The notes under the pieces: model-generated
Database searches by the model: none
What the model saw: the letters and a program-made list of their open reading frames with translations, nothing else
What the model was told of the DNA's origin: nothing
Program-made: the position numbers and the translations under genes
Assembly: GCF_964204645.1 (NCBI RefSeq)
Contig: NC_134027.1
Span: forward strand, 15,656,485-15,720,484
Source of the DNA: Tubulanus polymorphus
Lineage: Eukaryota; Animalia; Nemertea
Reading direction: 5' to 3'
Length of the DNA: 64,000 bases
Shown here: piece after piece, positions 1,604-64,000 of the stretch
Numbering within the stretch: position 1 is the stretch's first letter
Layout of the letters: each line of letters begins with the position of its first letter

Positions 1604-2450
1604 ATATGAGAAGATAGAATGTGAAATTCGTGGTGAACTTCAAAGAAAAAGTAATATGGCTCGACATATGAAAAAACATGATAAAAATTACAAACCCCCT
1701 AAAATAAACTGCCCAAATTGTAATAAATCATTCTCAAGAAATTATGTTAAAAAACATTCAGAGAAGTGTAAAATTAATGACTTAACGGTTAATGTTGATA
1801 GTCACGAAAGTAATAATAATTCTGTTGAAGTTGAACCTGAAATTATTTGGAAAAGACCTTTTTTTATTTTATGACAAGAATAATATAAAAGATCATTTCT
1901 GTGAGCATTGTCGAATAAAATATAGCCCTGAAAATATAGAAGATTGGGAGAATCATCAATTTCGTAAAGCACATATAGATAAAATTTCTCATAAATTTGA
2001 AGCAGAATTTAATGAAAAAAAAATAATATATTATAAAAAATAAAATATGAGAAAACGTTACCAAATAATAAAGAAACACTTGAAAAGTTGGAAAAACAAT
2101 ATAGTTAATTAGTAAGAAAAACATATTATTATAAATATTGTAAATTGATTATTACAACAAGTAATTCAAATCTACATAATAGAACAATAAAACATAAAGA
2201 AAACGTAAGAAAATACCAAGAACTTAATGAAGATCTATTACCAAGATATGATAGAAAAAAATGCCCACAATGTATTTATGAGTACTTAAGACAAGACGAT
2301 TCTGTGATATTTTGTAATGAATGTGGATGGCAAAAAATGTATGGGGTGATGAAAAAACTAGATATTCTTATAGAACCAAAATTAAAATATCTAGATGAAA
2401 TTTTAAAGACCATCACGCGAAATATATCTTTTATCATCGAACGGATTTAA
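1604..2450 (+). pseudogene. Multi-zinc-finger/VLTF3-like gene, frameshifted and 3'-truncated
   Basis: CPNC, CEHC, CKYC, CPQC..CNECG motifs; homologous to 20977-22242. Confidence 0.7.
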
Positions 2451-28497: not shown

Positions 28498-28746
28498 TGT
28501 TACGTATTCGATGTTTGTCTAGCATCACTGGTTTTCAAGTTCCTATTTCGTCATGTCAGTGTTCATTGTGAATATTGTAAGCTTTAATCTCTGTCTGTAT
28601 TCTTCTATTGTTGTTTCCTGTATATATATGTTCGTACTGTTGATATTCAGCAGTTCAGTTGAGTTCTGTTTAATAAAGCAGTTGGTGTTATGTAGATGGC
28701 AGTCTTCCGAGTTGTGTTTGTAGTTTGGCTTTTTCTGGCCGTAACA
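28498..28746 (+). repeat. 5' LTR
   Basis: tgttacg...cgtaaca; repeated at 33480. Confidence 0.96.
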
Positions 28747-28768: not shown

Positions 28769-28834
28769 GACCTTGCCGTTTCGTTCTGCAATTGGAAGAT
28801 TCGTACATTTTGAACTGCTTTTTGTCGTCGACGA

Positions 28835-30889
28835 TTGTCAACTTTTCAACTGAACTCCGGAATCAGGATTTCCTCAGTGATAGAGACTTTTATTAGTTCT
28901 CCTACGAGGGAGGCTTTAGGACTCTTTACTAAAAAAGAGTTGTTGGATGTTGCCACATTTTATGAACTCGGTGTTAAATCGTCTATGCTAAAATCGAACA
29001 TTAAGGATGTCATAGACAGTTATCTCGTTTTGAAGGGTTTATTTCAACAGTGTGAAGTAGAACCAATTTCTGACCATGCCTACGAAATTCGAAAGATGGA
29101 GCCTGAATTTGAAGCCGGACAACGCGAACGGGATCGTGAAAGGGATCGTGAGCGGGAGCAACATGAGCTACAACTTAGAGAGATGGAAATTCGTCTTCGT
29201 GAAGTTGAGACCAGTCGTCAGACGAATCGTCTACAGTCGAATCATCTACACTTCGATGTTACACGTCACATCCGATTGGTTCCGAAGTTCCAAGATTCCA
29301 ATATAGATAAGTATTTTTCGCATTTTGAAAAAGTCGCGCTTAATCTAAATTGGCCGCAGGAAAACTGGACTTTGCTACTCCAGAGTGTTCTAACTGGGAA
29401 GGCTCAAGAAGTGTATTCGTCGCTTACATCCGAACAGTCATATGATTATGAAATTGTAAAATCTTGTATTCTTAAAGCGTATGAATTAGTTCCAGAAGCC
29501 TATCGACAACGGTTCAGAGATCGTAAAAAGGTTGAAAATGAAACATATTCAGAATTTGCTAGGGAAAAAGAAACCTTGTTCACTCGCTGGTGTGATTCTA
29601 AATTAGGTAAAAGCGATTTTGACAAATTGCGACAGTTAATGCTTTTGGAAGAATTTAAACAGTGTGTACCAGTGGAAATTAAAACCTATTTGGATGAACA
29701 AAAGGTTTATGATTTAAATGAGGCAGCTACAGCTGCTGATGACTATTCCTTAACCCATAAGGTCTTTAAAGAGGTTAAATCTTATGATACTGTTCGTAGT
29801 CAAGCTTCTAGTTATCAGCTAAAAGGGCAAAATTCACCCGTTATTTGCAATTATTGTAAAAAATCTGGACATTTAATGTCTTCGTGCTTCAAATTACAGG
29901 CAAAGAGAAAACGGGAATCTACTGGGTCGATCGCCTTACTTACACCCCATCCTCCAGTACTGTCAGATGAATCAACAATTTCGTCATCAACTACCTACAA
30001 GAGGTCGTTTGAACCGTTTATAAGTGATGGCAAAGTATCGTTCAGTGAAAATAATTCAATGGTGAGTGTCAAGATATTACGCGATACTGGCGCGTCACAA
30101 ACCATAATTTTAGAAGGAACCATACCATTGTCTAAGCACACTTATACCGGTAAAAACGTACTTCTTAGGGGTGTTGGGTCCGAGATTCTCGATGTACCAA
30201 TTCATAAACTATATTTGGATTGTGATTTAATGTCTGGCTGGTTTGAGATGGGTGTGTGTCCGTCGTTGCCAGTTCAGGGTATCTCTCTGTTACTTGGAAA
30301 TGATTTGGCCGGTGGTAATGTTAGGGTAAATCCTTTTGTTTCTAAGAACCCTGTTCTTAGTTTTGAGACTGAGTTATTAGACCAGGAAATTCCTGGGTTA
30401 TTTCCGTCATGTGTGGTAACTAGGTCTATGTCTAAAAAGACTAGCGGCGGATTTGAAAATTTAGAATCTAAGAATGACTTAAGATCTATTGATGATGAAA
30501 ATTCAGAGAATTCTTTTCATTTACGTGACACGTTTTTATCGAAGATATTTGATGATTCTCTTCTTGTTTCTGATTTTGATGTTGTGTCACGTTCTAACTT
30601 AATTAAGTTTCAAAAAAGTGATAGGGATTTGGAGAAACTAATTTCTATTGCTTATGCCTCAAAAGAGGATCTTGCTGATAGCCATTGTGGTTATTTTTTG
30701 GATTCAGGTGTGCTAATGCGCAAATTTCGCCCACCTGATGTCCCTGCATCTACTGAATGGAAAGTTAATTATCAGATTGTCATTCCATCAGTTTATCGTG
30801 AAGATATTTTGCGTTTGGCTCACGAAAAACCAAAAACGTATAACAAAGTATTGCAACATTTCTTTTGGCCGGGCATAAAAAAGATGTGA
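28835..30889 (+). CDS. Gag (CCHC knuckle) - aspartic protease - start of integrase; true start uncertain
   Basis: CNYCKKSGHLMSSC; LRDTGAS. Confidence 0.88.
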   Translation: MSTFQLNSGIRISSVIETFISSPTREALGLFTKKELLDVATFYELGVKSSMLKSNIKDVIDSYLVLKGLFQQCEVEPISDHAYEIRKMEPEFEAGQRERDRERDREREQHELQLREMEIRLREVETSRQTNRLQSNHLHFDVTRHIRLVPKFQDSNIDKYFSHFEKVALNLNWPQENWTLLLQSVLTGKAQEVYSSLTSEQSYDYEIVKSCILKAYELVPEAYRQRFRDRKKVENETYSEFAREKETLFTRWCDSKLGKSDFDKLRQLMLLEEFKQCVPVEIKTYLDEQKVYDLNEAATAADDYSLTHKVFKEVKSYDTVRSQASSYQLKGQNSPVICNYCKKSGHLMSSCFKLQAKRKRESTGSIALLTPHPPVLSDESTISSSTTYKRSFEPFISDGKVSFSENNSMVSVKILRDTGASQTIILEGTIPLSKHTYTGKNVLLRGVGSEILDVPIHKLYLDCDLMSGWFEMGVCPSLPVQGISLLLGNDLAGGNVRVNPFVSKNPVLSFETELLDQEIPGLFPSCVVTRSMSKKTSGGFENLESKNDLRSIDDENSENSFHLRDTFLSKIFDDSLLVSDFDVVSRSNLIKFQKSDRDLEKLISIAYASKEDLADSHCGYFLDSGVLMRKFRPPDVPASTEWKVNYQIVIPSVYREDILRLAHEKPKTYNKVLQHFFWPGIKKM

Positions 30890-33360
30890 GTAATTTTTGT
30901 GCCTCATGCCATTATTGCCAAATATGTGGTAAGCCTAATCAGGCTATACCCAAACATCCGTTGATACCTGTACCTGCATTTAATGAACCATTTTCGGACG
31001 TTATCTGTGACTGTGTTGGTAAGTTACCAAAAACTCGATCTGGTAATGAGTATTTGTTGACGATCATGTGCAAGTCAACTCACTATCCAGAGGCAATTCC
31101 TCTGCGTACAATTAATGCTCCTACAATATTAAAAGCACTCACAAAATTCTTTACGTCATACGGGTTTCCAAAAACTATACAGTCTGATCAGGGATCAAAT
31201 TTTGTTTCTGGAGTGTTTCAACAGGTCATGTATCAACTGGGTGTTAAACAAAGTACTTCGAGTGCGTATCATCCTGAATCTCAGGGGGCGCTTGAGAGGT
31301 TTCATCAAACGTTGAACACAATGCTTACAGTTTACTGTGAAGAAAATCAAAAAGATTGGGATGAAGGGGTTCCGTTTCTTTTGTTTGCCGTTAGAGATGC
31401 GGTCCAAGAGTCATTAGGATTTAGTCCCTTCGAATTAGTTTTTGGGCATGAAGTGCGCGGTCCGCTTAAATTGCTTAAAGAAAGATTTCTACTTGATAAT
31501 GATGAAAAACAGAATGACTGTAACTTAATGAAGTATGTTTCTAGTTTTAGAAATAGATTATTCAAGGCGTGGGAGAGTGCCCGTAGATATTTGAAGGACT
31601 CTCAAATGACTATGAAAACATGGTATGATAAAAAGGCTCGGAAACGAATATTTAGTCCGGGGGACAAAGTTCTTGTATTGTTTCCTTTTAAGGGGGCGAG
31701 CCTTCAGGCGAAATTTCGAGGTCCTTACATTGTACTCGAAAAATTAAATGATGTAAATTATTTGATAGCGACTCCTGACCGTAGGAAAGATAGTCAGGTT
31801 TGTCATGTTAACATGATGAAACGTTATTTAGAAAGAAACCAAGACTCTGCTAGTAGTATAAATATGTGTATAGATACTGTTCATTCTTCTAATTTACTGG
31901 ATGCGGATGATGTCGGTAGTGCAGTTGATAAAACGTTACCGTTTTGTAGCAGACCAGTTTCTAATGGTGGTGACAGTCAGAGTAATTATGTAGATTTTCT
32001 ATTTGAAAATTCGAAAGTGATGGATAATATTAATGCCAAATTAGATCACTTGGAGCCTCGTGAGAAATCTGATTTAAAACAATTGTTAAATGAATTTCAA
32101 CATCTCTTTACAGATACTCCGGGCTTGACTACGCTCGCTTGTCACGATGTGGATGTTGGTGAGGCTAAACCAATGAAGCAGCATCCATATCGTGTGAATC
32201 CTGTTAAATCTGAAATTATGAAAGAGGAGGTTATCGCTATGTTAAAGACGGGTATTGCCGAGCCTAGCACGAGTGATTGGAGTTCACCCTGTATTTTAGT
32301 TCCGAAACAGAATGGTAAGTGGCGGTTCTGTACGGACTATCGTAAGGTTAATTCGGTTACCAAATCTGATTCTTACCCAATTCCAAGAATTGACGATTTG
32401 ATAGATAGAATCGGTAGAGCCAAATACATCAGTAAATTTGACCTTACAAAAGGTTATTGGCAGGTTCCTCTTTCTCAGCGTGCTCGGGAAATATCCGCCT
32501 TTTGTACCCCTCATGGTTTATTCCAATACTGTAGAATGCCATTTGGGATGAAAAATTCGGCAGCCACGTTTCAACGGCTGATGAATCAAGTCATTAAAGG
32601 TCTTATATGTGTTGTTGTATATATTGATGACATAATTGTATTTTCTGATACGTGGAATGAACACTTGTATCAATTAAGATGCCTATTCGAGAGATTAACT
32701 GAGGCTAACTTGACGGTAAATCTAATTAAAAGTGATTTTGGTCAAGCTAAATGTATATATTTGGGTCACGTTGTAGGCCATGGGCAAGTTAAACCCGTAA
32801 ATGCAAAAATTGAAGCTATTGTTAATTATCCCGCCCCCCAGGATCGTCGATCTTTAATGCGATTTCTGGGTATGGCAGGTTATTATAGAAAATTCTGTGT
32901 GAACTTTGCCCAGGTTACATCGGTATTGACTGATTTGTTGAAGAAGAATGTTAAATTTGAGTGGACTAATCATCGTGATGAGGCGTTCTTGAACGTAAAA
33001 AGATTGTTGAGTAATAAACCAGTGCTTATTGCGCCGGACTTTGGTAGGCAATTCAAATTAATGATCGACGCCTGTGACATTGGTGCAGGTGCTGTATTAA
33101 TTCAAGCTGACGATTGTGGTATAGACCATCCAATTTGTTACTTCTCAAAAAAATTTGATGTTTCGCAACAAAATTACTCAACTATTGAGAAAGAATGTTT
33201 AGCCTTGATACTTGCTTTAGAACATTTTAACGTATATACTACTATGTGTCTCTTTCCGGTGATTGTCTATACTGATCATAATCCGTTAACTTTTGTAAAT
33301 AGTATGAAGAATAAGAACAAGAGGTTGATGAGATGGTGTTTGAACCTTACAGGAGTATGA
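30865..33360 (+). CDS. Integrase - reverse transcriptase - RNase H (frameshifted from upstream ORF)
   Basis: SDQGSNF, YHPESQG, GPY, DYRKVN, YIDD, DACD, TDHNPL. Confidence 0.92.
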   Translation: MAGHKKDVSNFCASCHYCQICGKPNQAIPKHPLIPVPAFNEPFSDVICDCVGKLPKTRSGNEYLLTIMCKSTHYPEAIPLRTINAPTILKALTKFFTSYGFPKTIQSDQGSNFVSGVFQQVMYQLGVKQSTSSAYHPESQGALERFHQTLNTMLTVYCEENQKDWDEGVPFLLFAVRDAVQESLGFSPFELVFGHEVRGPLKLLKERFLLDNDEKQNDCNLMKYVSSFRNRLFKAWESARRYLKDSQMTMKTWYDKKARKRIFSPGDKVLVLFPFKGASLQAKFRGPYIVLEKLNDVNYLIATPDRRKDSQVCHVNMMKRYLERNQDSASSINMCIDTVHSSNLLDADDVGSAVDKTLPFCSRPVSNGGDSQSNYVDFLFENSKVMDNINAKLDHLEPREKSDLKQLLNEFQHLFTDTPGLTTLACHDVDVGEAKPMKQHPYRVNPVKSEIMKEEVIAMLKTGIAEPSTSDWSSPCILVPKQNGKWRFCTDYRKVNSVTKSDSYPIPRIDDLIDRIGRAKYISKFDLTKGYWQVPLSQRAREISAFCTPHGLFQYCRMPFGMKNSAATFQRLMNQVIKGLICVVVYIDDIIVFSDTWNEHLYQLRCLFERLTEANLTVNLIKSDFGQAKCIYLGHVVGHGQVKPVNAKIEAIVNYPAPQDRRSLMRFLGMAGYYRKFCVNFAQVTSVLTDLLKKNVKFEWTNHRDEAFLNVKRLLSNKPVLIAPDFGRQFKLMIDACDIGAGAVLIQADDCGIDHPICYFSKKFDVSQQNYSTIEKECLALILALEHFNVYTTMCLFPVIVYTDHNPLTFVNSMKNKNKRLMRWCLNLTGV

Positions 33361-33479: not shown

Positions 33480-33728
33480 TGTTACGTATTCGATGTTTGT
33501 CTCGCATCACTGGTTTTCAAGTTCCTATTTCGTCATGTCAGTGTTCATTGTGAATATTGTAAGCTTTAATCTCTGTCTGTATTCTTCTATTGTTGTTTCC
33601 TGTATATATATGTTCGTACTGTTGATATTCAGCAGTTCAGTTGAGTTCTGTTTAATAAAGCAGTTGGTGTTATGTAGATGGCAGTCTTCCGAGTTGTGTT
33701 TGTAGTTTGGCTTTTTCTGGCCGTAACA
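33480..33728 (+). repeat. 3' LTR
   Basis: Preceded by PPT aagaaggggg. Confidence 0.96.
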
Positions 33729-35290: not shown

Positions 35291-35560
35291 GACTTTCTCA
35301 AAATGTATCAAAAATTAAACTAATTTTTAGTTCATAAGTCCTCAAATATTCATAAATGAACGGTTAAAAATTGATGAAACATGCCGTAAAATCAACCTAT
35401 TAACAGTCCGGAATGTGGGATAATGTCGGGCTTTAGAGAACATAATGCCCCCGAGGTCTTCACATTTACAGAAAAGATTACGTAAGTGATTCACGCGCAG
35501 CGTGCGATAGGCGCACAATAGAAATCTGAGCCGCTCGTTCTTTGAGTGTCACCAATTTAA

Positions 35561-38500
35561 GGGGACCGCTATTGTGAAAATTGACCTTGGGAGGAATATT
35601 CCTCCCAAAGTCAATCGATGGAAACTTGACCAAGGGGTTCGACATCCAAACAATTGACTTTGGCAGGAATATTCCTCCCAAGGTCAAACGAAGAGAATTT
35701 GACCTTCAGGTCTGATATTCAAAATATCGACTTCGGGAGGAATGTTCCTCCGAATGTCAAACGAAGGAAACTGGACCTGGTCTGTTATTCGAAATATCGA
35801 CTTTGGGATGAATGTCCTTCCAAACCACTAAACGCTAAAAACCTGAGGTAATATAAACTAGATTGGTGTAATCATTGTTTTTGATAAGTAGTATATACTA
35901 TAGTGACGACACCAGACATATTTAGGCAATTTGAGTGATAATGTACATGGTATTTGAGGGTCTGCGACGAACGATTTTTAGAAAGTTAAATAGCTGTAGT
36001 GCAGGTTCAAATAATGAGTCTAATATAGTCTTCACATCGCAATCAGTTTTTAGAATGTATCTTCCTTTTTCTTTACTTGATCTTGAGTCTTTGACTCGTT
36101 AAATTTTTTCTTGATTGATTGATGCTGGGAGGTCTAGATCAAATTATATTGTTAATCAAATCAATTATTTTTCAACTGCAAATTCACACTTGATATTGAT
36201 ATTAGTAATCAATATTACTCATTTCATAATATAGCGCACTGCTGCAAATAGTTATCAGTGTGCTTTGCATGAGTATAAAATAAACACAAGCTGAAAAATC
36301 GAAATGTAAATACGTGGATGATAAAAATCAAGTTAAAAGGTGTAGGGGCGGAGAGATCTGGCGAGAAAAAAAAACAGTAATGGGCGCAAAATGGACCCGT
36401 GCCTAATTGCCCGACCAAAAACGACCAGACCAGACCTGAGTCAAATTAAGCGTGTTAATTTAAACTGGTTTTGGAAATCAGTCATTTCGCTTTGTTTAAA
36501 GTTTGGACTCGTTTTAGATTCCATTGCTTAAGCATTGTTTAGTATCGAATGAATGGGTTTGAATTTGAATGTGAAATGAATTTGAACATGAAAATCGGCG
36601 CGCTCTTTGGTAAGCTATGCGTAAAATTTAAGTCGGACCTGATTCGAGCCAATTTAGCCCCGCCAAATCGTCTCTATAGCCGCGATCACACGTGCATTTT
36701 TGGCCCGGGCCAATTTTGGCCCGTGTCAAATTTAGCCCGGAGCAACTGTTTACACGGGTGCCAAGTGGGCCCGAGCCTGTTTGGCCCGGGCCAAATTTGG
36801 CCCGACCAAAAACGTCGGACCAGGCCCGAGCCTTTTTTGGCATCAGACAAATGACTGCGTTTGAATTGCACCGGGAATGATCCACTTCCCTTTGTTTGAG
36901 CATTGTTAAGTATCGAGTGAATGGTTTGCTTGTGAACGCGCTCTCTAATTTGGCCCGGGCGAAATCGTCTCCGTGTGATCGCGGCTCATGGGATCCCGGC
37001 TTATGTGGGTCATGAGTGATAAGATAAATCTTTCCCTTTATGTTTGCAAATTAGCCATTGTCCTAGTTTTAACTTCTGATTTGTACCCTGTGTAGGGGTT
37101 TATATTTCTGTTTGTACTCTTTCATAGAAATACGACAGATATCAAATGGGATCTTTGATTAAAGACACTGTAGACCGGTACACACCAATATGTCAATCCA
37201 TCCGACCTACGAGCAATCATCTCATTAATGAGATTATTGCTCGTAAATCCGACAGCTACGTTTTACAACAAGAAATATATTAGATGAGATTCCTAATGAT
37301 AAAATCATTACTATTAAGAATATGTTATTAATTATGAAAAGATTCAAAAAGAATTGACAAAATATATTACTTTGAATGGCCTTTAGATATTGGATAGGGC
37401 GATTTTGAATTATTTTTGGGGAATTTTATCAAGAAGCTCAAACTCCCTAAGGCGATAAAGTGTTTAAGGCAGATCTTTCCCGATTATGATCCCACCATAT
37501 GAATTGCTCATGAAACTATTATGTATAAACACCTCCCAATTAACGTAATGACTGAGTGACGTCCTGTTGCACAAGCTATATTACACCATGATAAAAAGCC
37601 TATTATAGTCAAGTTGGGTTTCTCGATGTATAAATGCAGGGAGGGTCGGGAGCTTTATGTTCAATAACATTAGGTTCCTATAAATGTTTGCTCTATGGAT
37701 TTCAAAATAAAAGAAAAATTTACGTTAAACGTGATATCTGTTTCATTACTCGTGATATATCGGGGAATCTCTGCAATAAAATTTGACGATTTCAAAACTA
37801 TTACAAAATGAGCAAATTGCGATTCTTAGTGATATTTGCTAACATTATGAATTCTAGCGTATAAGCGGATTTGTGTGATATGTAATAAGTATCGTAGCGA
37901 TAATCAATGAGAAAAGTATCTACCGTAGCTAGAAATGACAATTAAATCAGAATATCTCCCTCAAAATACCTACATCCGTTCAAAAAAATATCCCCCTGGT
38001 AAAAATTTCCTATGTAGAAATCTAAAAAAATCTAAACCCTATATAAACATGGTAAACATACCCTGGGTATAAATCCCCAAATATTCAATAATCTCTACTT
38101 CGTGATTATCAAGAACATTTCAATCGACGATGTTTCTCCAATTTAATTCATTTGCAATGAGACTGAAATATGTTTGAAATTTTTAATGAAATCTTTCATT
38201 GCGATAAACTCTTAAGGATAAAATAAATTGTAAGAATAAATAAGAGTAATAAACTTTTATTTGTAATATCTTAAGATTCGAACTGGAATACTTTTGAACT
38301 GCGGACTCTCGATAACTTTTGGTATATTTCAGCTGTGCGATGCCATGAATTGAAATGTGCGATGAACCCCTTTACTAAGCTGTGCAATAACTACATGTAT
38401 ATGTACTAATTTAGTATCAATGAAACATTAATTTGTAGTATGTCTTAATTCAAATAGCATAGTTTGTATGGGCATATTGATATCCTTATGGTGTTCGACA

Positions 38501-40619: not shown

Positions 40620-42377
40620 ATGCCAATTAGTTACTTATATCACCGTATTAGGATAGGTTCTTTTTTCTTGAAAACTCCATCTGCACCGCCAGTGGCTAGC
40701 GTAAGACATGCACCTGACAAAAGACTGTACGTGCCTTTAATATTAAAGCTTTTCATGTACTTATCTCTATTTCTATCCGACGGCATACCTATTATACTTG
40801 TCCGGTTAGTATTATTTGTTATGGTAGTCACGTGCTTTATGATTGGGTGTCTGATGGTGTATGCATGGGTAAAATTCTTAGCAGCAAATAGCAAGCATAC
40901 TTTCAATTTACGCAGTATCTACTTAACTATTTTGGCTATTTTTTCAGTGATCCTACTCCTGGGTAGCGGAAACTTAGTTTATATCTATAAAACACGCTAT
41001 TATATTTTACTTCTATGTAATGATGTCGAAGTCAACCCTGGTCCTGAGACAACAACTGATCTTACTATTTTATTTTCAAATATTAGAAGCATCACTGCTG
41101 ACAATGGACTACGTTTCGATTGTCTCAAATCCCGTATCACTGAATCAAAAGCAAAAGTCGTTGCTCTTTGCGAAGTTGGAGATATTTCAACAAGACTTGA
41201 TGACTTCACAATAGAGGGTTTCTCCATAGGGTATTATACGCCAAATAATCGAGGATTAATTTTATATTATCACGACTCGTTAATCTGTAATGTTAGAAAT
41301 GATCTGATTTCTAAGTGTAACCACTCGATATGGTTAAATATTAAAGAAAAGTTTAAAACGATGTTGTTGTGTATCACTTATAGATCCCCCTCACAACCTC
41401 CGAATGAACGGAAGCGATTTTTTGATTCGATGAAAGCTATTATATGTGACGAACAGAAAAAGATAAATCCACTGAATAATTGTATACATATTATAGGCGA
41501 TTTCAATGCAAAAAAATACACTATGGTGCAACAGCGATGTTACAAATACACCTGGCCGCGAACTGTATCAGATCGCCAGGGATCTTTTTTCTCCCAAATA
41601 GTACATTCTCCAACCCGCGTTACAGCTAGCACCAGCAGCTGTATTGATCTACTTTTTACAGATTCTCCGAGTCTCATTAATGAATGCTCAGTGACCATGC
41701 CTATCGGCAATACAGATCGTAGTACTTTTTTGATCAATGCGGCGTTTCAAAACTCGAAACTGCTACTGAGACGGAAAATAGTCTGGAACTATAATGCTTG
41801 CGATATTACTCGCCTCAACGAATCTATTGAACAATTTGATTGGAATCTTATTTTTCAAACTTTGGACACAAACAGTTTGGCTGAGTCATTTACAAATTCG
41901 CTATTTGCTATTTACCCCTCTCATGTACCGCATAGATCAGTGCACATAAAATCTAACGACCAACCGTGGATAAAAGATTATGTCAAACAGGCCATGAACA
42001 CCCGAAATAGGCTATATAGGCGCTTTAAAACTACTGGCTACGCTTCATACTATTACCGATACAAATCCCAAACCAATATTGTAAATTCTCTAATAAACAA
42101 AGCAAAACGCGAACTGGAAAATAATCTTATCAACAAGCTTGAAAACTCGTCAAAAACCAAGTGCGACTATTGGCATTTGCTAAAAACTTTTCTTGGAGAT
42201 AAATTTTCATCTCAGATTCCTAGCATAATTGATCCTGCTACTTCAACCATGTGCGATACTGAAAGCGAAAAGGCAAAAGTGTTTCTCCGAATCATATCTG
42301 ATAAATATCACTCAAACTCTAAAATTGATGCCTTGCCCCCCTTTGCAAATAGAAGCCCGCACGATATATTCATGCCA
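40620..42377 (+). pseudogene. LINE ORF, 5' part: hydrophobic leader, 2A-like peptide, AP endonuclease
   Basis: DVEVNPGP, NIRS, ALCE, YRSPS, GDFNA, PTRVT..CIDL, QPWI. Confidence 0.88.
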
Positions 42378-42397
42378 CTTCGCTACCGCTCCGCTCC

Positions 42398-42533
42398 GCG
42401 ACCAATTGATTTATTTACAATACACAAATTCATATAATCAAATATATTCAAATGATAATAATTATTCTATTATTCAACTGAAATACACACGGTTATGAAA
42501 ATATATTATAGTTTTTAATTACTTTTAATATAT
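42398..42533 (+). repeat. Left terminal inverted repeat (136 bp)
   Basis: Reverse complement of 55111-55246. Confidence 0.95.
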
Positions 42534-42670
42534 GTTTTTAATGAACTCGACCATTCAACCTTTAACCCGAAAGCCCATTACCCCTATTACTCTTAAAATA
42601 TTCATATATATGAATAAAATATAGATGAATAACTTCTAAAATCAATTTTAATAAAAAATTTAGTATTAAA

Positions 42671-45600
42671 ATGGAAGCAAATAAGTACTACTGTCCAACA
42701 TGTAATATCAATATAGATAAATCCCAAAAAGCAAGACACAATAAAACTAAAACACATTTAAAGAATAAATTGAAACTAGAATATGAAGATGATATATTAG
42801 AAACTAAATTAGAAGAATTAAAGAATGAAAAAGAAACATACAAATGTGATACATGTAATCAATCATTCAGTGATAAAAGATATTATAAAGAACATTTAAA
42901 ATCTATAAGTCATATTAGAAATAAGAATAATGATATTTTAGGTGAAGATTATTTTGATAATGATAACGATAAGAAACAGAAGACAATTAAAAGCATAAAA
43001 AATAAATTAAACAATAAAAGACCATACATGGAAGATGTAAGAAATTATATTAATTCATTAGATAATAAAAAAGATATAGAGATAACCGAAGCATTTAAAA
43101 GTGATATTGGTCCAGCAGCTATCGAGTTTAAATTTCATAAAGGAAAAACATTAGAAGAAAATAAAAAACATTTAGAAAATATGAAAAATATTATAAAAAT
43201 AATTACTGATGTTGAATATCCTAAAATTAGTATATCAGTTAAAGTAAAGTTTATAAAATCTGAAGATAAACCAATATATAATATAAATTCTCATTCACAA
43301 CATATTATATCTAAACAACATATAGATGATAAATTAGATAAATGTTATAATGAAGTAAAAACTAAAATAGAAGAGAAATATTTTGAAAGATCTGGTTTAA
43401 TATTTGATGAGATAATATTTATAACTTTACATGTTTATACAAAATATAATAAGTTAACTAAATCAAAACCAATTGATGAAAATAATTTATCATATTATAA
43501 AGATGATAGTATAAATGGAACAAGTTATATTAAACTACCATTTAAAACTAATGCTGTAATAAATGTACAAAATTTTGATAATAAATGTTTTCTATGGGCT
43601 ATAATAAGTTGTTTACATCCTGCAACTTATAATATTTGTAGATTAACTCATTATAAACCATTTAAAAATAATTATAAGATAGATAAGTATCCTGTTATAA
43701 TTAAAGACATCCCAAAAATAGAAAGAGATAATAATATAAAGATAAATGTGTTTGATTTAATCAAATTACCAAATACAAAAGGTAACAATATAAAACATTA
43801 TACATTAGAACCTTTATATCTATCAAAAGATTATGATTCAAACGATGTTATAGATATACTATATTATGAGAATCATTATATGTGGATTAAACAAATAGAT
43901 TTATTTTTTAAATCAGAAAATGATCACCATAAAATATATCTTTGTAGAAAATGTTTACATAGATTCAGTAATGAAAGTACATTATTAAATCATAAACAAT
44001 TATGTGAAAATCATGATTATTGTAAATTAGTTTTACCAAATGAAAAAGATAAAATATTAGAATTCAAAAAATATGATTACAAAAATAAAGTACCATTTGT
44101 AATATATGGAGATTTTGAATCATTAAATAAAGAACTAACTGATCAAGATAGAAAAGAAATATATTATAAAAGAAAGAAATTAAATTCTAATGAAAATGAT
44201 TTTTCAGATGAACCACCAAAAACAAATACTATTAAAAAGATTCATCAATCAGCTGCAGCTTTCGGGTTATATATTAAATCTGATTATCCAGAACTAATTG
44301 AAAGTGAATATTATAATTATAGAAATGAAAATGTTATCAATCATTTTTGTGACTTATTGATTGAATATGAAATAAGATTTAGTAAATTATTGAATACAAA
44401 TATAGAAATTATAATGACAGAAGAAGATAAAGAAGTATTTGCGTTTGCAGATAAATGTTATTATTGTGAAAAGATATTTAATTATAAAGATAAAAAAGTA
44501 AGAGACCATTATCATTTGAATGGAAAGTTTAGAGGCGCTGCACATGAGAATTGTAACTTACAAGCTAAGAAAATTAACTTTGTACCAGTTATATTTCATA
44601 ATCTATCAGGATATGATGCACATTTATTTATCAAACAGTTATGCTATAAAATAGAAGAAATCAATAATGAAATAGAAATATTAAATTCAAATAGATCAAA
44701 AGATAAAATACCAACTTATAAATTTAGAATGTTAGCTAAAACATCTGAGAATTATATATCATTCCAATTTGGTTGTCTAAGATTTATAGATTCATATAGA
44801 TTTTTAAATAGTTCATTAGATAACTTATCAAAATCATTAGTTGATGATGAATTAAAGATATTAAAAGAATATTACCCAAATAATGATGATTTTAAATTAA
44901 TGAGATATAAAGGAGCAATTCCATATTCTTTCTATAAAAATCATAATGATTTTAAAATAACTGAATTATTGAAAGAACAATTTTATGATGAATTAAAAAA
45001 TGAATATGTTAAAGATGAAGTCTATAATAGAACATTGAATATTTGGAATCATTTCAAAATAGAAAATCATGGGCAATTAGTAGATTTATATTTAAAATCA
45101 GATGTATTATTATTAACCGATATATTCGAAAGGTTTAGAGATGTAAACCTAAAATATTTCAATATTGATCCTTGTCATTGTTATTCATCACCAGGATTAA
45201 CATGGGATTGTGGATTAAAATTTACAGATATAAAAATGGATTTGTTAACAAATATAGATCAATTATTATTATTTGAAAAATCTATAAGAGGAGGTGTTTC
45301 AGGTGTATTAGGTGATAGATATTTCAATGTAAATGATAAACCCGGATATAAGTTATTATATATAGATGCAAATAATTTGTATGGTTGGGCAATGATGGAA
45401 CCACAACCTTATGGAGTATTTGAAATAAGTGAAGTTTTACAGAATGAAAATAATGATAAATTTGATTGGAAGAAAAGAATTCTAGATATTGCAGATGATT
45501 CAGATACTGGTTACTTTTTTGTTGTAGATTTAGAATATCCTGAACATATTAAATTTAAATCTAGAAATCTAGCTTACTGTCCCGAACATAAAACTGTAAC

Positions 45601-46699
45601 TCATGAAGAATTATCAAATTATCAAAAAAGAATTAAACCTGAAAATCATATTCATACAGAAAAGTTAATGGTAACTCAAGAAGATAAATATAATTATGTA
45701 GTACATTATAGAATGTTAAAGTTTTATCTAAATCAAGGAATGATTCTAAAAAAAGTACATAGATATATTTCATTTAACCAATCTAAGTGGTTAGAAAAAT
45801 ATATAGATTTTAACACCAAACAGAGAACTAAAGCTAAAACTGATTTCGAGAAAGATTTCTTCAAGTTAATGAATAATGCATTCTATGGTAAGACTTGTGA
45901 AAATATTAGAAATAGAAATGATATTGAGTTAGTTAGTAATGGTAAAAGAATTAGACATTTACAATCATATCCTAAGTTCATTGGTAACAGAATATTTGAT
46001 GAAAATTTAGCCGCAGTTAAAATGAGAAGAACATCAATGAAATTTAATAAACCAATCTATGTTGGCGCTTCAGTTTTAGAATTATCAAAATTACTAATGT
46101 ATGAATTCTATTATAATGTATTACAACCACTTTTTGGAGAAAAACATATAGAAATATTATATTTTGATACAGATTCTTACATATTAAAGATAAAAACTGA
46201 TAACATAACTGATGATTTAAAAACATTAAAACATCATTTTGATTTTAGTAATTATCCTAAAAATCATGAATTGTTTAGCAATGATAATAAAAAAGTTCCA
46301 GGGAAGTTTAAGGATGAATTAGGTGGTGAAGAAATGATTGAATTCATCGGTATTAGATCTAAAATGTATTCATATAAAACTAAAGAACATGAAGCTAAAA
46401 AGTTAAAAGGAATAACCAAAAGTGTAGTAGAAAAGAATATTCATTTCAAAGATTACATCAATTGTATATTCAATGAAGAAGTTAGAAAACATAAAATGAG
46501 ATGTTTAAGATCTGAAGATCATGAACTGTTTATTGAAGAAATTGAAAAGATAAGTCTAAACCCATTTGATGATAAAAGATATATTTTAGATGATGGAATT
46601 CATACAGTTGCTTATGGTTGTAATTTAGATGAATACTTAAAATTTAAAAGAGAAGAAACAAAAGAGAACGAGATAATGAAAAGAATTCTAACGTGTTAA
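42671..46699 (+). CDS. polB: Protein-primed family B DNA polymerase, intein-free, with N-terminal C2H2 fingers and an endonuclease VII-like insert
   Basis: YGDFES, FHNLSGYD, YLKSDV (exonuclease); RDHYHLNGKFRGAAHENCN; YIDANNLYG, KLMNNAFYGK, YFDTDS. Confidence 0.97.
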   Translation: MEANKYYCPTCNINIDKSQKARHNKTKTHLKNKLKLEYEDDILETKLEELKNEKETYKCDTCNQSFSDKRYYKEHLKSISHIRNKNNDILGEDYFDNDNDKKQKTIKSIKNKLNNKRPYMEDVRNYINSLDNKKDIEITEAFKSDIGPAAIEFKFHKGKTLEENKKHLENMKNIIKIITDVEYPKISISVKVKFIKSEDKPIYNINSHSQHIISKQHIDDKLDKCYNEVKTKIEEKYFERSGLIFDEIIFITLHVYTKYNKLTKSKPIDENNLSYYKDDSINGTSYIKLPFKTNAVINVQNFDNKCFLWAIISCLHPATYNICRLTHYKPFKNNYKIDKYPVIIKDIPKIERDNNIKINVFDLIKLPNTKGNNIKHYTLEPLYLSKDYDSNDVIDILYYENHYMWIKQIDLFFKSENDHHKIYLCRKCLHRFSNESTLLNHKQLCENHDYCKLVLPNEKDKILEFKKYDYKNKVPFVIYGDFESLNKELTDQDRKEIYYKRKKLNSNENDFSDEPPKTNTIKKIHQSAAAFGLYIKSDYPELIESEYYNYRNENVINHFCDLLIEYEIRFSKLLNTNIEIIMTEEDKEVFAFADKCYYCEKIFNYKDKKVRDHYHLNGKFRGAAHENCNLQAKKINFVPVIFHNLSGYDAHLFIKQLCYKIEEINNEIEILNSNRSKDKIPTYKFRMLAKTSENYISFQFGCLRFIDSYRFLNSSLDNLSKSLVDDELKILKEYYPNNDDFKLMRYKGAIPYSFYKNHNDFKITELLKEQFYDELKNEYVKDEVYNRTLNIWNHFKIENHGQLVDLYLKSDVLLLTDIFERFRDVNLKYFNIDPCHCYSSPGLTWDCGLKFTDIKMDLLTNIDQLLLFEKSIRGGVSGVLGDRYFNVNDKPGYKLLYIDANNLYGWAMMEPQPYGVFEISEVLQNENNDKFDWKKRILDIADDSDTGYFFVVDLEYPEHIKFKSRNLAYCPEHKTVTHEELSNYQKRIKPENHIHTEKLMVTQEDKYNYVVHYRMLKFYLNQGMILKKVHRYISFNQSKWLEKYIDFNTKQRTKAKTDFEKDFFKLMNNAFYGKTCENIRNRNDIELVSNGKRIRHLQSYPKFIGNRIFDENLAAVKMRRTSMKFNKPIYVGASVLELSKLLMYEFYYNVLQPLFGEKHIEILYFDTDSYILKIKTDNITDDLKTLKHHFDFSNYPKNHELFSNDNKKVPGKFKDELGGEEMIEFIGIRSKMYSYKTKEHEAKKLKGITKSVVEKNIHFKDYINCIFNEEVRKHKMRCLRSEDHELFIEEIEKISLNPFDDKRYILDDGIHTVAYGCNLDEYLKFKREETKENEIMKRILTC

Positions 46700-52258: not shown

Positions 52259-53505
52259 ATGAGTGGGAGTTATATCAATCCTTCTAAGAATCATAGAATA
52301 TCTAATGCTATTAAAGCAGAAAGATCACATCATATAATTACTAATAACCTTTCAAATATTAATCCCGATGAAACTTTATACGTTAGAATCCCTCGATTAA
52401 CACAAAATACTTTTTATGTTCCAAATAGTATTTATTTATCGGCCGATATAAAAGTAATCGGTAATAATAATAATTATGTTGTTGATAATGTTGGAAGATA
52501 TTTGATTAAAAAGTTAACAATAAAGATTGGTCCAGAAACAGTTTTCTCATTAGATGATTATAATTTATTTATGCATTATAAAGATTTATGGTTAACTAAA
52601 GAAAATAGAAATAATATGATATTTCAGGGTATTCAATCAGAAAACCATAATAAATTAAGATCTGAAGCCAATAATGCAGTAGTAACTAATGCTGTAGATA
52701 ATTTGATAAAAAAGATTTATGGAAGCAAATATAAAATTCCATTAGACTTTGAATTGATAAATAATAATGCACCTTTATATAAATACGCAATTCAAGAAGA
52801 CGTTATATTCGAAATAACATTTGCTCCTGTTAATGAAATTGTATTATCTAGCGTTAATAAAGATATGAGTTATAAATTATCGAATATATGTTTAGAATAT
52901 GATACAGTAACTGATGAAAATATTTCAAGTATAATTCAAACTAAATACAATCAAGGATTTTCATTATTATATGATTATATTGATAAATTTAAAACCGTAA
53001 CTATTAATGCAAATGATGAAATAATTAATGAGAATATTAACTTCTCAAGAAGATCTATTAAAGGCATATTAATATTTTCTACCATTGCAACATATACTAA
53101 TGGCGCAATAAATGTTGATAATTATTATAATCCTGAAATAACAAAAGTAGAAATAACTATCGAAGGAATAGCAAATAAAATATTTTGCCAAGGAATGAGA
53201 ATGATAGATCAGTGGCCAGAAATTAGAAAACATTTTATGAATGAAAAAGTAAAATCATCTGAAAATTGTAATATTAATCAAATTGATTATTATACCGGCA
53301 ATAAATATGCATTATGGTTAGATTTTAGAACAACAGAGGATAATTCATTACATGGTTCTGGAAAAAATTACAAAACACTAAAGATGGAATACAATTATTC
53401 ATGACAAAGAATAAAGGAATCAAAAATTTTAAAATGCACATTTATATTATATCTGACGCGCAATTAAATATTGTAAATTCACAATTAGATAGTGTTATGT
53501 ATTAA
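52259..53505 (+). CDS. Major capsid protein (putative double jelly-roll), frameshift near 53365
   Basis: ~415 aa, beta-rich; NVGRYLIKKLTIKIG, ICLEYD, ALWLDFRT, SDAQLNI; near the packaging ATPase. Confidence 0.75.
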
Positions 53506-54514: not shown

Positions 54515-55090
54515 TTATTTTATAAATTTATATTCATAGGGAAATTGTAGTCTCAGTAATAATTTTGAACCTTTATTATTCTTTAATTTATTCATATATT
54601 CATCATGTAATTCAGTAGGTATAATTTGATTTTCTTCCAATGATTGTTGCATAGATTTTTTATCTTTGTTATAAAATAAAACTAGAAATCTAATGTTTTC
54701 TCTAAAGTCTTTAACAATTGAATTATATTTTTGATTTAAAACCCAAGTTGTTATCCCAAAATGTCTTCCAGAGAAAGCTAAATAACATAACTCACTTTCT
54801 CTAACTTTTGAATTATGTAAATTTGCGCAATCATCTATAATGAATAATGTATTTGATCCTTTATAAGTATCAATTGCTATTTTAATACAATTATCTAAAT
54901 TTTCTTTTACTGTTTTAGGATCTAATATAATAAACTTTTTCATCTTAACTATATCTCTATTATATGTTTTATTCATTTCATAAGTAGGACAGAATAATAT
55001 TATATTATCAAAATGATTCTTATAAATAGTTTCTAACAAGTCTAATATGAAATGTGTTTTACCACAATTGGTTACTCCAGTTATTAACAT
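54515..55090 (-). CDS. A32/FtsK-HerA family genome-packaging ATPase
   Basis: GVTNCGKT Walker A, IIDD Walker B, SGRH, Q sensor, REN. Confidence 0.92.
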   Translation of the reverse strand: MLITGVTNCGKTHFILDLLETIYKNHFDNIILFCPTYEMNKTYNRDIVKMKKFIILDPKTVKENLDNCIKIAIDTYKGSNTLFIIDDCANLHNSKVRESELCYLAFSGRHFGITTWVLNQKYNSIVKDFRENIRFLVLFYNKDKKSMQQSLEENQIIPTELHDEYMNKLKNNKGSKLLLRLQFPYEYKFIK

Positions 55091-55110
55091 ATTATGCGGT
55101 TCAAATATAA

Positions 55111-55246
55111 ATATATTAAAAGTAATTAAAAACTATAATATATTTTCATAACCGTGTGTATTTCAGTTGAATAATAGAATAATTATTATCATTTGAATAT
55201 ATTTGATTATATGAATTTGTGTATTGTAAATAAATCAATTGGTCGC
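55111..55246 (-). repeat. Right terminal inverted repeat (136 bp)
   Basis: Reverse complement of 42398-42533. Confidence 0.95.
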
Positions 55247-55247
55247 T

Positions 55248-55456
55248 CCACTTCGCTACCGCTCCGCTACGCGACCAATTGATTTAATACAATATGCTTT
55301 TTAGATTATTGATATCTTAGAATAAATATTTAGTTTTAATATAAAATACACACGGTTATGAAAATATATTATAGTTTTTAATTACTTTTAATGTTTTGTT
55401 TTTTAATGAGCTCGACCCTTCGACCTTTGATCTGAAAGCCCATTACCCCTATTACT
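55248..55456 (+). repeat. Diverged direct repeat of the viral left end (42375-42591)
   Basis: ccacttcgctaccgctccgct..gcgaccaattgattta..aaatacacacggttatg..gaaagcccattacccctattact. Confidence 0.9.
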
Positions 55457-59511: not shown

Positions 59512-62500
59512 GAGGACCGCTATTGTGAAAATTGACCTTGAGAGGAATATTCCTCCCAAAGTCAATCGATGGAAACTTGACCAAGGGGTTCGATATTTAA
59601 AGAATTGACTTTGGGAGGAATATTCCTCCCAAGGTCAAACGAAGAGAATTTGACCTTCAGGTCTGATATTCAAAGTATCGACTTCGAGAGGAATGTTCCT
59701 CCCTATGTCAAACGAAGGAAAATGGACCTGGTCTGATATTCGAAATATTGTCATACGTCAACTGAAGGAAAATAAACCCGAGTCTTAGATTCAAAGTATA
59801 TTGATTTAGGGAGGAATTTTTTCTCCCACCACTAAACGCTATAACCTGAATTTTTAGAAAGATAGGTATTGGTTTTTTGGGTGTAATTAGTTTTTTTAAA
59901 GCCATAAAGCCAGGTAGATTTATGAATTTCGAGTGATACGATACACAGTGTTCGAGGTAATGAGACGGTATGAGACATACATACAATCTTAGAAAACTAA
60001 ATAGATTTTGTATTTTCTTTGTCTAACAGTAAATTGCTATAACTTTGTTGACAATAAATTGTAATCAGATTGTAATCAGGCACTTCTCGATAAACATGTA
60101 GAGGGGAAATCGTATTTAAAACACGTGCATATATCATAACATAGAAATTAAGTTTTGATTATACAGGGAATATATTAGGACTAGGTGATACGATACACAG
60201 TGTTCGAGGTAATGAGACGGTATGAGACATACATACAATCTTAGAAAACTAAATAGATTTTGTACAAGTAGTTAATCTAGCAAAACAAAGTAAATTGTTC
60301 ATTACAGTGCATTGCTAAGGGTTAGCGTTAAAAACCCCAGAATGTTTGAAAATGGCCAAGGAAAAAATGGCCAGGAAAGAATGGCCAAATGGCCAAGGTA
60401 ATTTGTCTAGGAAATAAATGGCCAAGAAAAAATGGCCACGGAAAAAAAGGCCAAGGAAAATTTATGAGAACTACTGCTAATGTTAATAAAACATTAAGCT
60501 TTCAATTTAATGACATCACATATTTTTCATGGGGCTAAAAACAATTAAAATCGGTATTAATGAGTTCAGAAATGTGATGAATTTACATTTCATTTCATTG
60601 CATATAATGAATATATCAAGAACTATCATGCAAGTGGTCAATGAATAAACTTACTAAAGATGAACTTAAACTTAATAAAATAACTAAGTCAATAATTCAA
60701 AACATCTAAGTAAGCGAGTAAAAATCCCCTAGGTAAAAATCCCCAATTCTTCAAAGTAGGTGATCCCCTTCCTTTGAAGGGATTATAGGTAGATACAATT
60801 TATTCATATTTTACTGTCGAACACCATAAGGATATCAATATGCCCATACAAATTACGCTATTTAAATTAAAACATACTCCAAATTATTAATTGATACTAA
60901 ATTAGTACATATACATGTAGTTATTGCACAGCTTAGTAAATGGGTTCATCGCACATTTCAAATATATTACACTAGCTTGAATCTAAAATATTTAATATCA
61001 AAAGTACGTTATTTCTAATAGTTCATGGCATCGCACAGCTGAAATATACCACAAGTTAACAAGAGTCCGCAGTTCAAAAATATTCCAGTTCGAATCTTAA
61101 GATATTACAAATAAAAGTTTATTACTCTTATTAATTCTTACAATTTATTTTATCCGTAAGAATTTATCGCAACGAAAGATTTCATTTAAAAGTTCAAACA
61201 TATTTCAGTCTCATTGCAAATTCGATAAACATCGTGCTTTGAAATGTTCTTGACAATCACCAAGTATGAATATTTGGGGGATTTTTACCCAGGGTATGTT
61301 TACCATGTTTACTTAGGGTTTAGATTTTTTAGATTTCTACATAGGAAATCTTTACCAGGGGATCTTTTTTGAACGGATGAAGGTATTTTGAAGGAGATAT
61401 TCCGGAGGGATTTTTAATTGTCATATCTAGCTACGGTAGATACTTTTCTCATTGATTATTCGCTACGATACTTATTACATATCGCACGTGTCACCGCGTA
61501 TACGCTAGAATCAATACTGTTAGCAAAAATCACTAAGAATCGCAATTTGCTCATTTTGTAATATTTTTGATATCGTCCAATTTTATTGCAGAGATTCCCC
61601 GATATATCACGAGTAATGAAACAGATATCACGTTTAAACGTAGATTTTTCTTTTATTTTGAAATACATACAGCAAACATTGGAACCTAATGTTATTGAAC
61701 ATAAAGCTCCCGACCCTCCCTGCATTTATACATCGAGAAATCCAACTCGACTATAATAGGCTTTTTATTATGGTGTAATATAGCTTGTGCAACAGGACGT
61801 CACTGAGTCATTACGTTAATTGTGAGGTGTTTATACATAATAGTTTCATGAGGAATTCATATGGTGGGATCATAATCGGGAAAGATCTGCCTTTAACAGT
61901 TTATCGCCTTAGGGAGTTTGAGCTTCTCAATAAAATTCCCCAAAAATAATTCAAAATCGCCCTATCCAATATCTAAAGGCCATTCAAAGCAATGTATTTT
62001 GTCAATTCTTTTTGAATTTATTCATAATTAGTAACATATTCTTAATAGTAATGATTTTATTATTAGCAATCTGATCTAATATATTTCTAGTTGTAAAACG
62101 TAGCGTGTAAACGGATGAACGAGCAATTATCTCATTAATGAGATGATCGCTTGTAGGTCGGATGGATGGACGTATTGGTGTGTACCGGTTTACAGTGTCT
62201 TTAATCAAAGATTCCATTTGATATCTGTCGTATTTCTATGAAAGAGTACAAACAGAAATATAAACCCCTATACAGGGTATAAATCAGAAATTAAAACTAG
62301 GACAATGGCTAATTTGCAAACATAAAGGGAAAGATTTCTCTCAACAATCATGACCCACATAAACCGCGATCACACGGAGACGATTTGGCCCGGGCCAAAT
62401 TAGCACCGATCAGGCTCGGGCCAAATTTGGTAATTAGAGAGTGCGTTCACACGCATACCATTCACTCGATACTAAACAATGCTCAAATAAAGCGAAGTGG

Positions 62501-63817
62501 ATCATTTACGGTGCTAGTTGCAATTCAAACGCAGTCATTTGTCTGGTGCTTGGGCCAGGTCCGACGTTTTTTGTCGGGCCAAATTTGGCCCGGGCCAAAC
62601 AGACTCGGGCACATTTGGCACCCGTGTGAACAGTTGTTCCGGGCCAAATTTGGCCCTGGCCAAATATACACGTGCGATCGCGGCTATAGAGACGATTTGT
62701 CGGGGCTAAATTGGCTCGAATCAGGTCCGACTTAAATTTTACGTATGGCTCGCCAAAGAGCGCGCAGATTTTCATGTTCAAATTCATTTCACATTCAAAT
62801 TCAAACCCATTCATTCGTTAATAAACAATGCTTAAACCATGGAATCTAAACCGAGTCCATACTTAAACCAAGCGAAGTGACTGTCTCCCAGAACCAGTTT
62901 AAATCAACACGCTTAATTTAATTTGACTCAGGTCTGGTCCGTCGTTTTTGGTCGGGCAATTAGGCACGGGTCCATTTTGCGCCCATTACTGTTTTTTTCG
63001 CCAGATCTCTCCGTTCCTACACCTTTTAACTTGATTTTTATCATCCACGTATTTAAATTTCGATTCTTTCAGCTGGTGTTAATTTAATACTCATGCAAAG
63101 CACACTGATTACAATTTGCAGCAGTGCGTTATATAATGAAATAAGTAATATTGATTGTTAATATCAATATCAAGTGTGAATTTGCAGTTGTAAAATAATT
63201 GATTTGATTAACAGTATAGTTTGATCTAGACCTCCCAGCGTCAATCAATGAAGAAAAAATTTAACTAGTCAAAGACTCAAGATCAAGTAAAGAAAAAGGA
63301 AGATGCATTCTAACAACTGATTGCGATGTGAAGACTATATTAGGCTTATTATTAGAACCTGCACTACAGCTATTCAACTTTCTATAAACCATTCGTCCCA
63401 GACCCTCAAGTACCGTGTACATTATCACTCAAATTGCCTAAATATGTCTGGTGTCGTCGCTATAGTATACTACTTATTAAAACAATTATTACACCAATAT
63501 AATTAATATATATACCTATCATTCTAAAAGCTCAGGTTTTTAGCGTTTAGTGGTTTTGAAGAACATTCATCCCAAACTCTATATATCGAATAACAGACCA
63601 GGTCCAGTTTCCTTCGTTTGACATTCGGAGGAACATTCCTCCCGAAGTCGATACTTTGAATATCAGACCTGAAGGTCAAATTCTCTTCGTTTGACCTTGG
63701 GAGGAATATTCCTCCCTAAGTCAATTGTTAAAATATCGGACCCCATGGTCAAGTTTCCATCGATTGACATTGGGAGGAATATTCTTCCCAAGGTCAATTT
63801 TCCCAATAGCGGTCCTC
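59512..63817. mobile_element. 4.3-kb TTAA-flanked non-autonomous DNA transposon (Kolobok-like) with ~300-bp TIRs
   Basis: ttaa|gaggaccgctatt ... aatagcggtcctc|ttaa; subterminal ggaggaatattcctcc palindromes. Confidence 0.75.
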
Positions 63818-64000
63818 TTAATTGGTGACACTCAAAGCGGTGTTGTCATATCGCGGAAAGACGGAATCGCGGAATTTTTTCCAAAAACGCGGAATTTCTT
63901 CATTTTTACTTTAAAAAGTAAACGGGTTTTCCCACGGGGATACCCACTGTCGGACAGGGCACCGGACCGATCGATGCAACGAGTTAGGTTCGAATCCCAT

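Follow-up and report, generated by a model that had tools for sequence, protein, structure and literature searches.

Is a polymerase gene that lacks an intein, when two other copies of the gene carry it, an open target for the intein's homing endonuclease, or a site that the enzyme no longer recognizes well? The question is raised by the window analyzed here (the whole 64,000-nucleotide stretch of DNA), in which the pol-c intein site of the polB gene of one element, element C, is empty (positions 46139 to 46198, forward strand, junction at 46168/46169). The original prediction placed an empty allele at this junction beside two filled copies, and this was borne out: copies A and B each carry an insert of 1065 bp, in frame and precisely at the element C junction point.

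The element that carries the empty site

The last base of the N-extein in element C is position 46168, and the polymerase reads NVLQPLFGEKHIEILYFD/TDSYILKIKT at the site (the slash marks the junction), with EKHIEILYFD before it. The empty site is motif C (YFD/TDS) in the uninterrupted polymerase of a Polinton-type element flanked by terminal inverted repeats (TIRs). The open reading frame (42629 to 46699, forward strand) has 1356 codons without a stop under the standard code, which rules out an alternative genetic code. The protein does not itself match the PF03175 model; it is 63% identical to the database polymerase P0003, which matches that model at 5e-17, and judged by this homology it is a protein-primed PolB (pPolB). 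A weak match to Endonuclease VII (HNH-type) lies inside it, at residues 583 to 631.

The left TIR (42398 to 42533, forward strand) is 136 bp long and 100% identical to the right one (55111 to 55246, reverse strand). Between them lie an A32-like packaging ATPase (54515 to 55132, reverse strand; PF04665, E 6.6e-12) and a predicted jelly-roll major capsid protein (52259 to 53404, forward strand). The capsid model is of low confidence (mean pLDDT 49.8), and its top structural matches (Z 7-8.6) cover the first domain only and come without exception from capsid or scaffold proteins of the double jelly-roll type, among them the PBCV-1 capsid (Z 8.6) and ASFV p72 (Z 8.5). Look-alikes of this protein in the Atlas are viral; its alignment left out L047, which has a stop in its stretch. 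A PHROGs search gave nothing specific besides the ATPase and Endonuclease VII matches, and no element C reading frame had a Pfam match to a maturation protease. In the accessible text on Polintons/Mavericks and adintoviruses (PMC8502044, PMC10748475), these elements likewise have TIRs, a pPolB with an HNH/EndoVII-like insert, an A32 ATPase, a jelly-roll capsid, and many copies; unlike them, element C has no integrase that we could find between its TIRs. An integrase remnant of 31 residues is present in the sister array described below (9338 to 9246), and the relative L006 encodes an integrase, so element C may be a deletion derivative.

The right end of element C joins a second, diverged left end, and the flanks are hence not comparable for a target-site duplication. 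There (55235 to 55456; compare 42375 to 42400), the right TIR leads into a short GC-rich spacer with inverted arms and then into a left end that is 81% identical, over about 210 bp, and the GC-rich motif recurs ahead of the left TIR of element C; the arrangement resembles a junction of the concatemer or hairpin type. Fragments of a degraded sister lineage that bears the intein form a rearranged array at 214 to 24990 (reverse strand; 68-92% identical to element C), in which at least three partial rearranged copies have common junctions (3.3 kb at 88% and 2.0 kb at 91% identity) and are interrupted by a LINE and by dinucleotide repeats. In downstream genes, this lineage of copies A and B is about 85% identical to C. 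Other neighbors of element C are LINE fragments and a DUF5641/rve element, presumably BEL/Pao. A Gmr1-type Gypsy retrotransposon with a SCAN domain and with the integrase ahead of the reverse transcriptase occupies 28814 to 33360; its insertion is recent, since LTR-like direct repeats of 249 bp (28498 to 28746 and 33480 to 33728) are 99.6% identical. In the text seen of a study in frogs, the SCAN domain is reported only in Gmr elements (PMC4131045). Judged by these neighbors, the host is probably an animal. Host-like DNA contains a pair of inverted repeats of 2.8 kb, 89% identical (35540 to 38349 and 61022 to 63837).

Inteins of the filled copies

Both filled copies are remnants. Their polB genes, the exteins around inteins A and B, are truncated and frameshifted (2406 to 4841 and 22245 to 24316, both on the reverse strand), and each encloses a 355-codon intein with a LAGLIDADG endonuclease. 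Intein A (3900 to 2836, reverse strand) has in-frame stops at codons 50 and 236 and a last residue atypical of the class 1 intein pattern; intein B (23759 to 22695, reverse strand) begins with Ser1, ends with Asn before a +1 Thr, and has a single in-frame stop at codon 65. Both were translated with X at stop codons. The stops precede the endonuclease domain, and thus copies A and B themselves are not expected to cut.

The assignment of the endonuclease to the LAGLIDADG family, made in the original prediction, agrees with the predicted structure of intein B (pLDDT 93.8, from an alignment of 59 rows), which combines a Hint fold with a two-domain LAGLIDADG fold and has 2cw7, 7qsu, PI-PfuI, PI-SceI, and I-DmoI as top Foldseek matches. 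It agrees as well with Pfam, where PF14528 scores above the cut-off and PF14890 below it. Ser or Cys at position 1, the block B His, the terminal Asn, and Ser, Thr, or Cys at +1 are present in B and in all eight intact pPolB relatives; the penultimate residue of B is Ala, where relatives have His (73/140) or Lys (53/140). The insert lies in frame at a conserved site and is absent from 118 of the 120 best pPolB homologs. Among 232 intein matches, 140 have the D/TDS boundaries of motif C, 126 of those after YGD. By sequence and structural model, the inserts in A and B are class 1 inteins with a homing endonuclease, of the pol-c allele.

Eight database pPolBs (P0003-P0010) have a homologous intein with an open frame at this point, 41-62% identical, and these eight together with A and B form one clade with support of 1.0. 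The tree was built with FastTree from these 10 sequences and 40 others, the nearest other full-length inteins, and was rooted at the midpoint; 134 of 142 extracted inteins were at least 300 residues long. The nearest outgroup consists of inteins 37-41% identical that reside in viral PolBs, and the hosts scanned were RNA-primed. The exteins of P0006 have no BLASTP match to the other seven hosts, and its intein is 40-46% identical to theirs, suggesting that the intein has moved between classes of pPolB. Another pPolB with an intein, P0008, is recorded in the genome bin of a clam gill symbiont, probably as host-derived contamination. One filled Polinton pPolB was found with its DNA (L056:3070-4089; 1 of 84 loci); its intein is 45% identical to B and apparently frameshifted. 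A search of IMG/VR with the intein returned a single weak partial match.

In the portions seen of PMC549080, the pol-c inteins of Mimivirus PolB and archaeal PolI have the same insertion point (the equivalent of YGD/TDS), a LAGLIDADG endonuclease and, as in B, Ser1, Asn, and +1 Thr. Unlike these, the present inteins are hosted by a protein-primed Polinton PolB and form the separate clade of 10. Viral polymerase inteins on eukaryotic nuclear scaffolds have likewise been described from endogenized giant viruses (PMC10710043, part text), in Klebsormidium, Tetrabaena, and a labyrinthulomycete; unlike those cases, the present inteins ride on a Polinton that occurs in many copies, some filled and some empty, in what is probably an animal. 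The part seen of a survey of eukaryotic inteins states that they are absent from metazoan genomes (PMC5784728). The word "intein" is absent from the main text, as far as accessible, of PMC8502044, PMC10748475, and 10.64898/2026.10.13.758929, and appears only generically in the accessible text of PMC12220804. In the portion of PMC11161782 available, intein invasions are proposed only to explain endonuclease insertions in pPolB, and the source cited there describes HNH and VSR domains. A search of main texts, in a collection with few subscription papers, found neither a Polinton described as carrying a Hint-plus-LAGLIDADG intein nor an intein described from an animal genome, a provisional result.

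Inteins A and B differ at 48 of 771 nucleotides outside four blocks and at 17-38% inside the blocks. At the protein level, 29 of 77 residues differ in the beta-sheets and loops of the endonuclease versus 35 of 275 elsewhere (p 2e-6, a generous value because the blocks were first spotted in the same A/B pair). The beta-sheets of LAGLIDADG endonucleases bind DNA. On the model of B, the two inteins differ mainly in the predicted DNA-binding strands of the endonuclease, and since most blocks also have an excess of silent changes, patch exchange seems a better account of them than positive selection on individual codons.

Silent sites and same-species reads at the junction

The DNA of the empty site matches the joined filled flanks on the 5' side and fails to match them on the 3' side. 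The 15 bp upstream of the junction have 0 mismatches among the three copies, whereas downstream C differs from A and B at 3-4 of 15 bp and 8-9 of 30 bp. An early description of the exteins as almost identical thus holds for the protein and for the 15 upstream bp, but not for the downstream DNA; the divergence that had been pointed out further upstream, QSYPKFIGNRIFDEN versus QSSPRHLGNKRFEDY, is present. Within 20 codons on either side of the junction, protein identity of C is 35/40 with each of A and B, versus 199/280 and 214/284, respectively, elsewhere. Windows around motif B attain the same 95% protein identity as the site.

Co-conversion or precise intein loss had been offered as the cause of this local identity, with a peak of silent-site identity as its expected mark. 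Third positions of same-residue codons within 20 codons on either side are at background (23/34 versus 125/184 for C and A; 21/33 versus 138/198 for C and B), and no peak appears at the junction in windows from 7 to 50 codons on either side in either comparison. The sign of the signal is reversed. At codons +1 to +10, C and B have identical synonymous codons in 2 of 10 cases versus 145/214 elsewhere (p 0.0035), which ranks first of 304 windows in silent divergence; the figures are 3/9 versus 137/205 for C and A (p 0.047), and 5/9 versus 234/252 for A and B (p 0.0037), again the extreme, of 303 windows. Silent identity in the ten upstream codons (8/10) is not above background (p 0.33-0.39). With third positions at background and the ten 3' codons in a trough, the proposed cause is not supported; since motif B is as similar and there is no silent peak, the similarity of the site reflects purifying selection on a catalytic motif.

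Filled and empty alleles were counted in run X6, whose reads are labeled as the same species; about 12% of the run was read, and the individual may differ from the assembled one, so the count applies to another sample rather than to the whole genome. Mapped on B at 85% identity or more, the reads cover the splicing region of the intein at a depth of 222-261, and the extein bins specific to the A/B lineage, in which divergence keeps C from mapping, at 244-286; because these depths are about equal, the A/B lineage is mostly filled. Reads mapped on C with at least 94% identity give a depth of 233-399, unbroken over the junction, and C-like reads have no joint and no intein-type loose end there among the 6 X6 rows listed (41 rows were unlisted). 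There are thus two polB lineages of similar read depth, one mostly filled and the other without a filled copy among the rows listed, and the filled (A, B) and empty (C) alleles belong to lineages about 75-81% identical. Filled and empty alleles do coexist in the host species, as had been proposed, but in two lineages and not in one population. The stop of B is present in 10 of 229 reads and is therefore rare among copies, and a drop in depth to about 90 (about a third of the intein depth) over the second endonuclease domain of B indicates several block variants.

C-like reads are polymorphic at the empty site itself (46156, 46157, 46171, and 46174-46176). The +1 codon has three states (the other two letters in 85/250 and 74/250 reads), and the +2 and +3 codons are B-like in 109-111 of about 245 reads (~45%), with the other family of serine codons at +3. 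Further linked clusters of variants at 46300-46312, 46339-46348, and 45949-45955 indicate that the junction is not the sole mosaic spot. At 46179, 10 bp downstream of the insertion site, 25 X6 reads have a loose end, the mark of a genomic copy rearranged close to the homing site; breakpoints of similar depth lie nearby.

Explanations for the empty allele

We lean toward reading the empty site of element C, the insertion point of the LAGLIDADG intein, as an escape allele that is poorly cut, in an arms race between endonuclease and target. Given the 3' divergence, it is doubtful that the intein endonuclease cuts this site. The silent trough 3' of the junction, the variation of the target among empty copies, and the differences between A and B in the endonuclease sheets favor this reading. 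In the mechanism we envisage, intact copies would cut matching empty alleles at co-infection or reactivation and transfer the intein into them along with a stretch of adjoining donor sequence; alleles that were cut but mended from a divergent empty allele would acquire a resistant patch; and endonuclease variants with swapped recognition strands would re-target the escapees. Since most C sites would go unrecognized, the empty C lineage would then survive alongside a filled lineage close to fixation.

Target variation among empties is clearest in two relatives, L006 and L007, which are 85% identical to C in amino acids and 99.55% identical to each other. They differ at 22 positions in 5124 bp, 15 of which fall within -43 to +9; no other dense cluster occurs in the 5.1 kb, and this one lies across the junction (p 4e-10). 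Among 42 close pairs, which are non-independent, an excess at the site is confined to four rows with L006 or L064, and so motif C is not generically variable. A second case comes from the family of P0004, a cluster of 136 members of which 15 are listed (7 filled, 6 empty, and 2 without coverage of the site), with proteins 98-99% identical upstream of the site. None of the eight empties listed from this family and two further relatives matches the filled flank, and they have three empty motifs. P0004 and P0098 have 0 differences from -120 to -8 and 16 from -7 onward, and differences between filled and empty members cover a tract that extends from -7 to about +104. Among seven empties of this family, the site window has 7 extra states versus a mean of 1.8, and the top window has 10 at -398. 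In the family of P0007, the empty P0106 is identical to the filled flank at the protein level. Across 124 empty pPolB domains, amino-acid homoplasy was also considered as evidence for an arms race (5 changes at +1, T/C, and 8 at +3, S/A/G, with the flanking Asp nearly invariant) and was dropped, since many other columns are equally variable; Cys replaces Thr at +1 in 37 of the 124 domains, and Ala or Gly is found at +3 in 27.

Several observations count against escape. Even without selection on C, donor flanks in A and B could produce the trough; the B-like 3' codons occur in about 45% of C-like reads, which yet seem empty; P0106 matches the filled flank; the site window is not the top one in the P0004 family; C-like reads have the other variant clusters; and most of the variable blocks between inteins A and B, raised at silent sites as well, resemble exchanged patches. 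There is, moreover, another possible cutter in L006 and L007. Reading frames lie directly 3' of polB in the closest empty relatives (L006:4079-4849, L007:4842-5612, L005:5129-5833), and we take those of L006 and L007 to have an HNH-like motif. They have no Pfam match, and no homolog of the L006 frame was found within the 64-kb window.

The strongest alternative, serious though on the whole unlikely, is that C belongs to an ancestrally empty lineage that has drifted, with the trough caused by different donor flanks in A and B and with C unshaped by escape. The predominance of the empty state (118 of the 120 best pPolB matches; 82 of the 83 loci with the site located) would be expected of it, as would the divergence of A from B 3' of the site, where the flank of A is richer in codons ending in G or C (9/25 at +1 to +25 versus 27/253 elsewhere), and the filled-versus-empty tract of the P0004 family. 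Between C and five empty metagenomic relatives, the 3' dip is non-significant (p 0.16-0.40), again as a drifted C would have it. What donor flanks leave unexplained are the site-centered differences between two empties, L006 and L007, the three empty motifs within one family 98-99% identical, and the serine codon-family switch that segregates in C-like reads.

That C is an open, cleavable target, similar to the filled exteins through co-conversion or precise intein loss, we regard as distinctly improbable. The 15 identical upstream bp and P0106, a matching empty allele in a related family, fit such a history, and LAGLIDADG enzymes are often tolerant of wobble changes, according to work cited in the part of 10.64898/2026.08.13.744650 seen (PMC3315327 holds nothing relevant on the tolerance of silent changes). 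A silent-site peak is missing at every window size tried, the upstream run is at background while the 3' side is a trough, and no filled C-type copy occurs among the rows listed. Thirty X6 reads that skip exactly 1065 bp on B would also speak for an open target, but these may be C-type reads with B-like 3' codons, because C is 83% identical to B there and the cut-off was 85%. Least probable is that the patches fall at the site by chance, as products of the recombination that makes multicopy elements mosaic in general or of free-standing nucleases encoded near polB: linked clusters elsewhere in C-like reads, a long patch between L039 and L064 (-23 to +258) in a clade without any observed intein, and the HNH-like frames after polB suit this idea, whereas the L006/L007 patch over the junction, the extreme rank of codons +1 to +10 among about 300 windows in two comparisons, and the coincidence of the variable intein blocks with the endonuclease sheets do not.

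An arms race of this kind has a parallel in the WHO elements of Torulaspora, for which the accessible text of 10.64898/2026.08.13.744650 describes LAGLIDADG variants, diversified targets at a catalytic site, and a proposed arms race. WHO elements are free-standing yeast genes that replace the 3' half of FBA1, with cleavage shown experimentally; unlike them, the putatively cutting enzyme here sits inside the intein of an endogenous virus. The persistence of inteins at conserved sites has been attributed to the difficulty that hosts have in evolving immunity there (PMC2814812, in the part seen). For the inteins described here, carried by multicopy Polintons whose host is probably an animal, the target in the catalytic motif of the polymerase turns over in patches. 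Tentatively, and with somewhat less confidence than we have in the escape reading of element C, we propose that a giant-virus-derived clade of pol-c LAGLIDADG inteins is spreading in high-copy animal Polintons amid an ongoing arms race, in which empty copies would exchange patches of motif DNA and inteins would exchange recognition strands, a gene drive with resistance in hundreds of copies. Within the intein family, strand variants of the endonuclease can be paired with matching targets. Since filled, empty, and variant alleles are preserved together in genomes, both resistance to a natural homing drive and the drive's counter-adaptation can be counted and tested.
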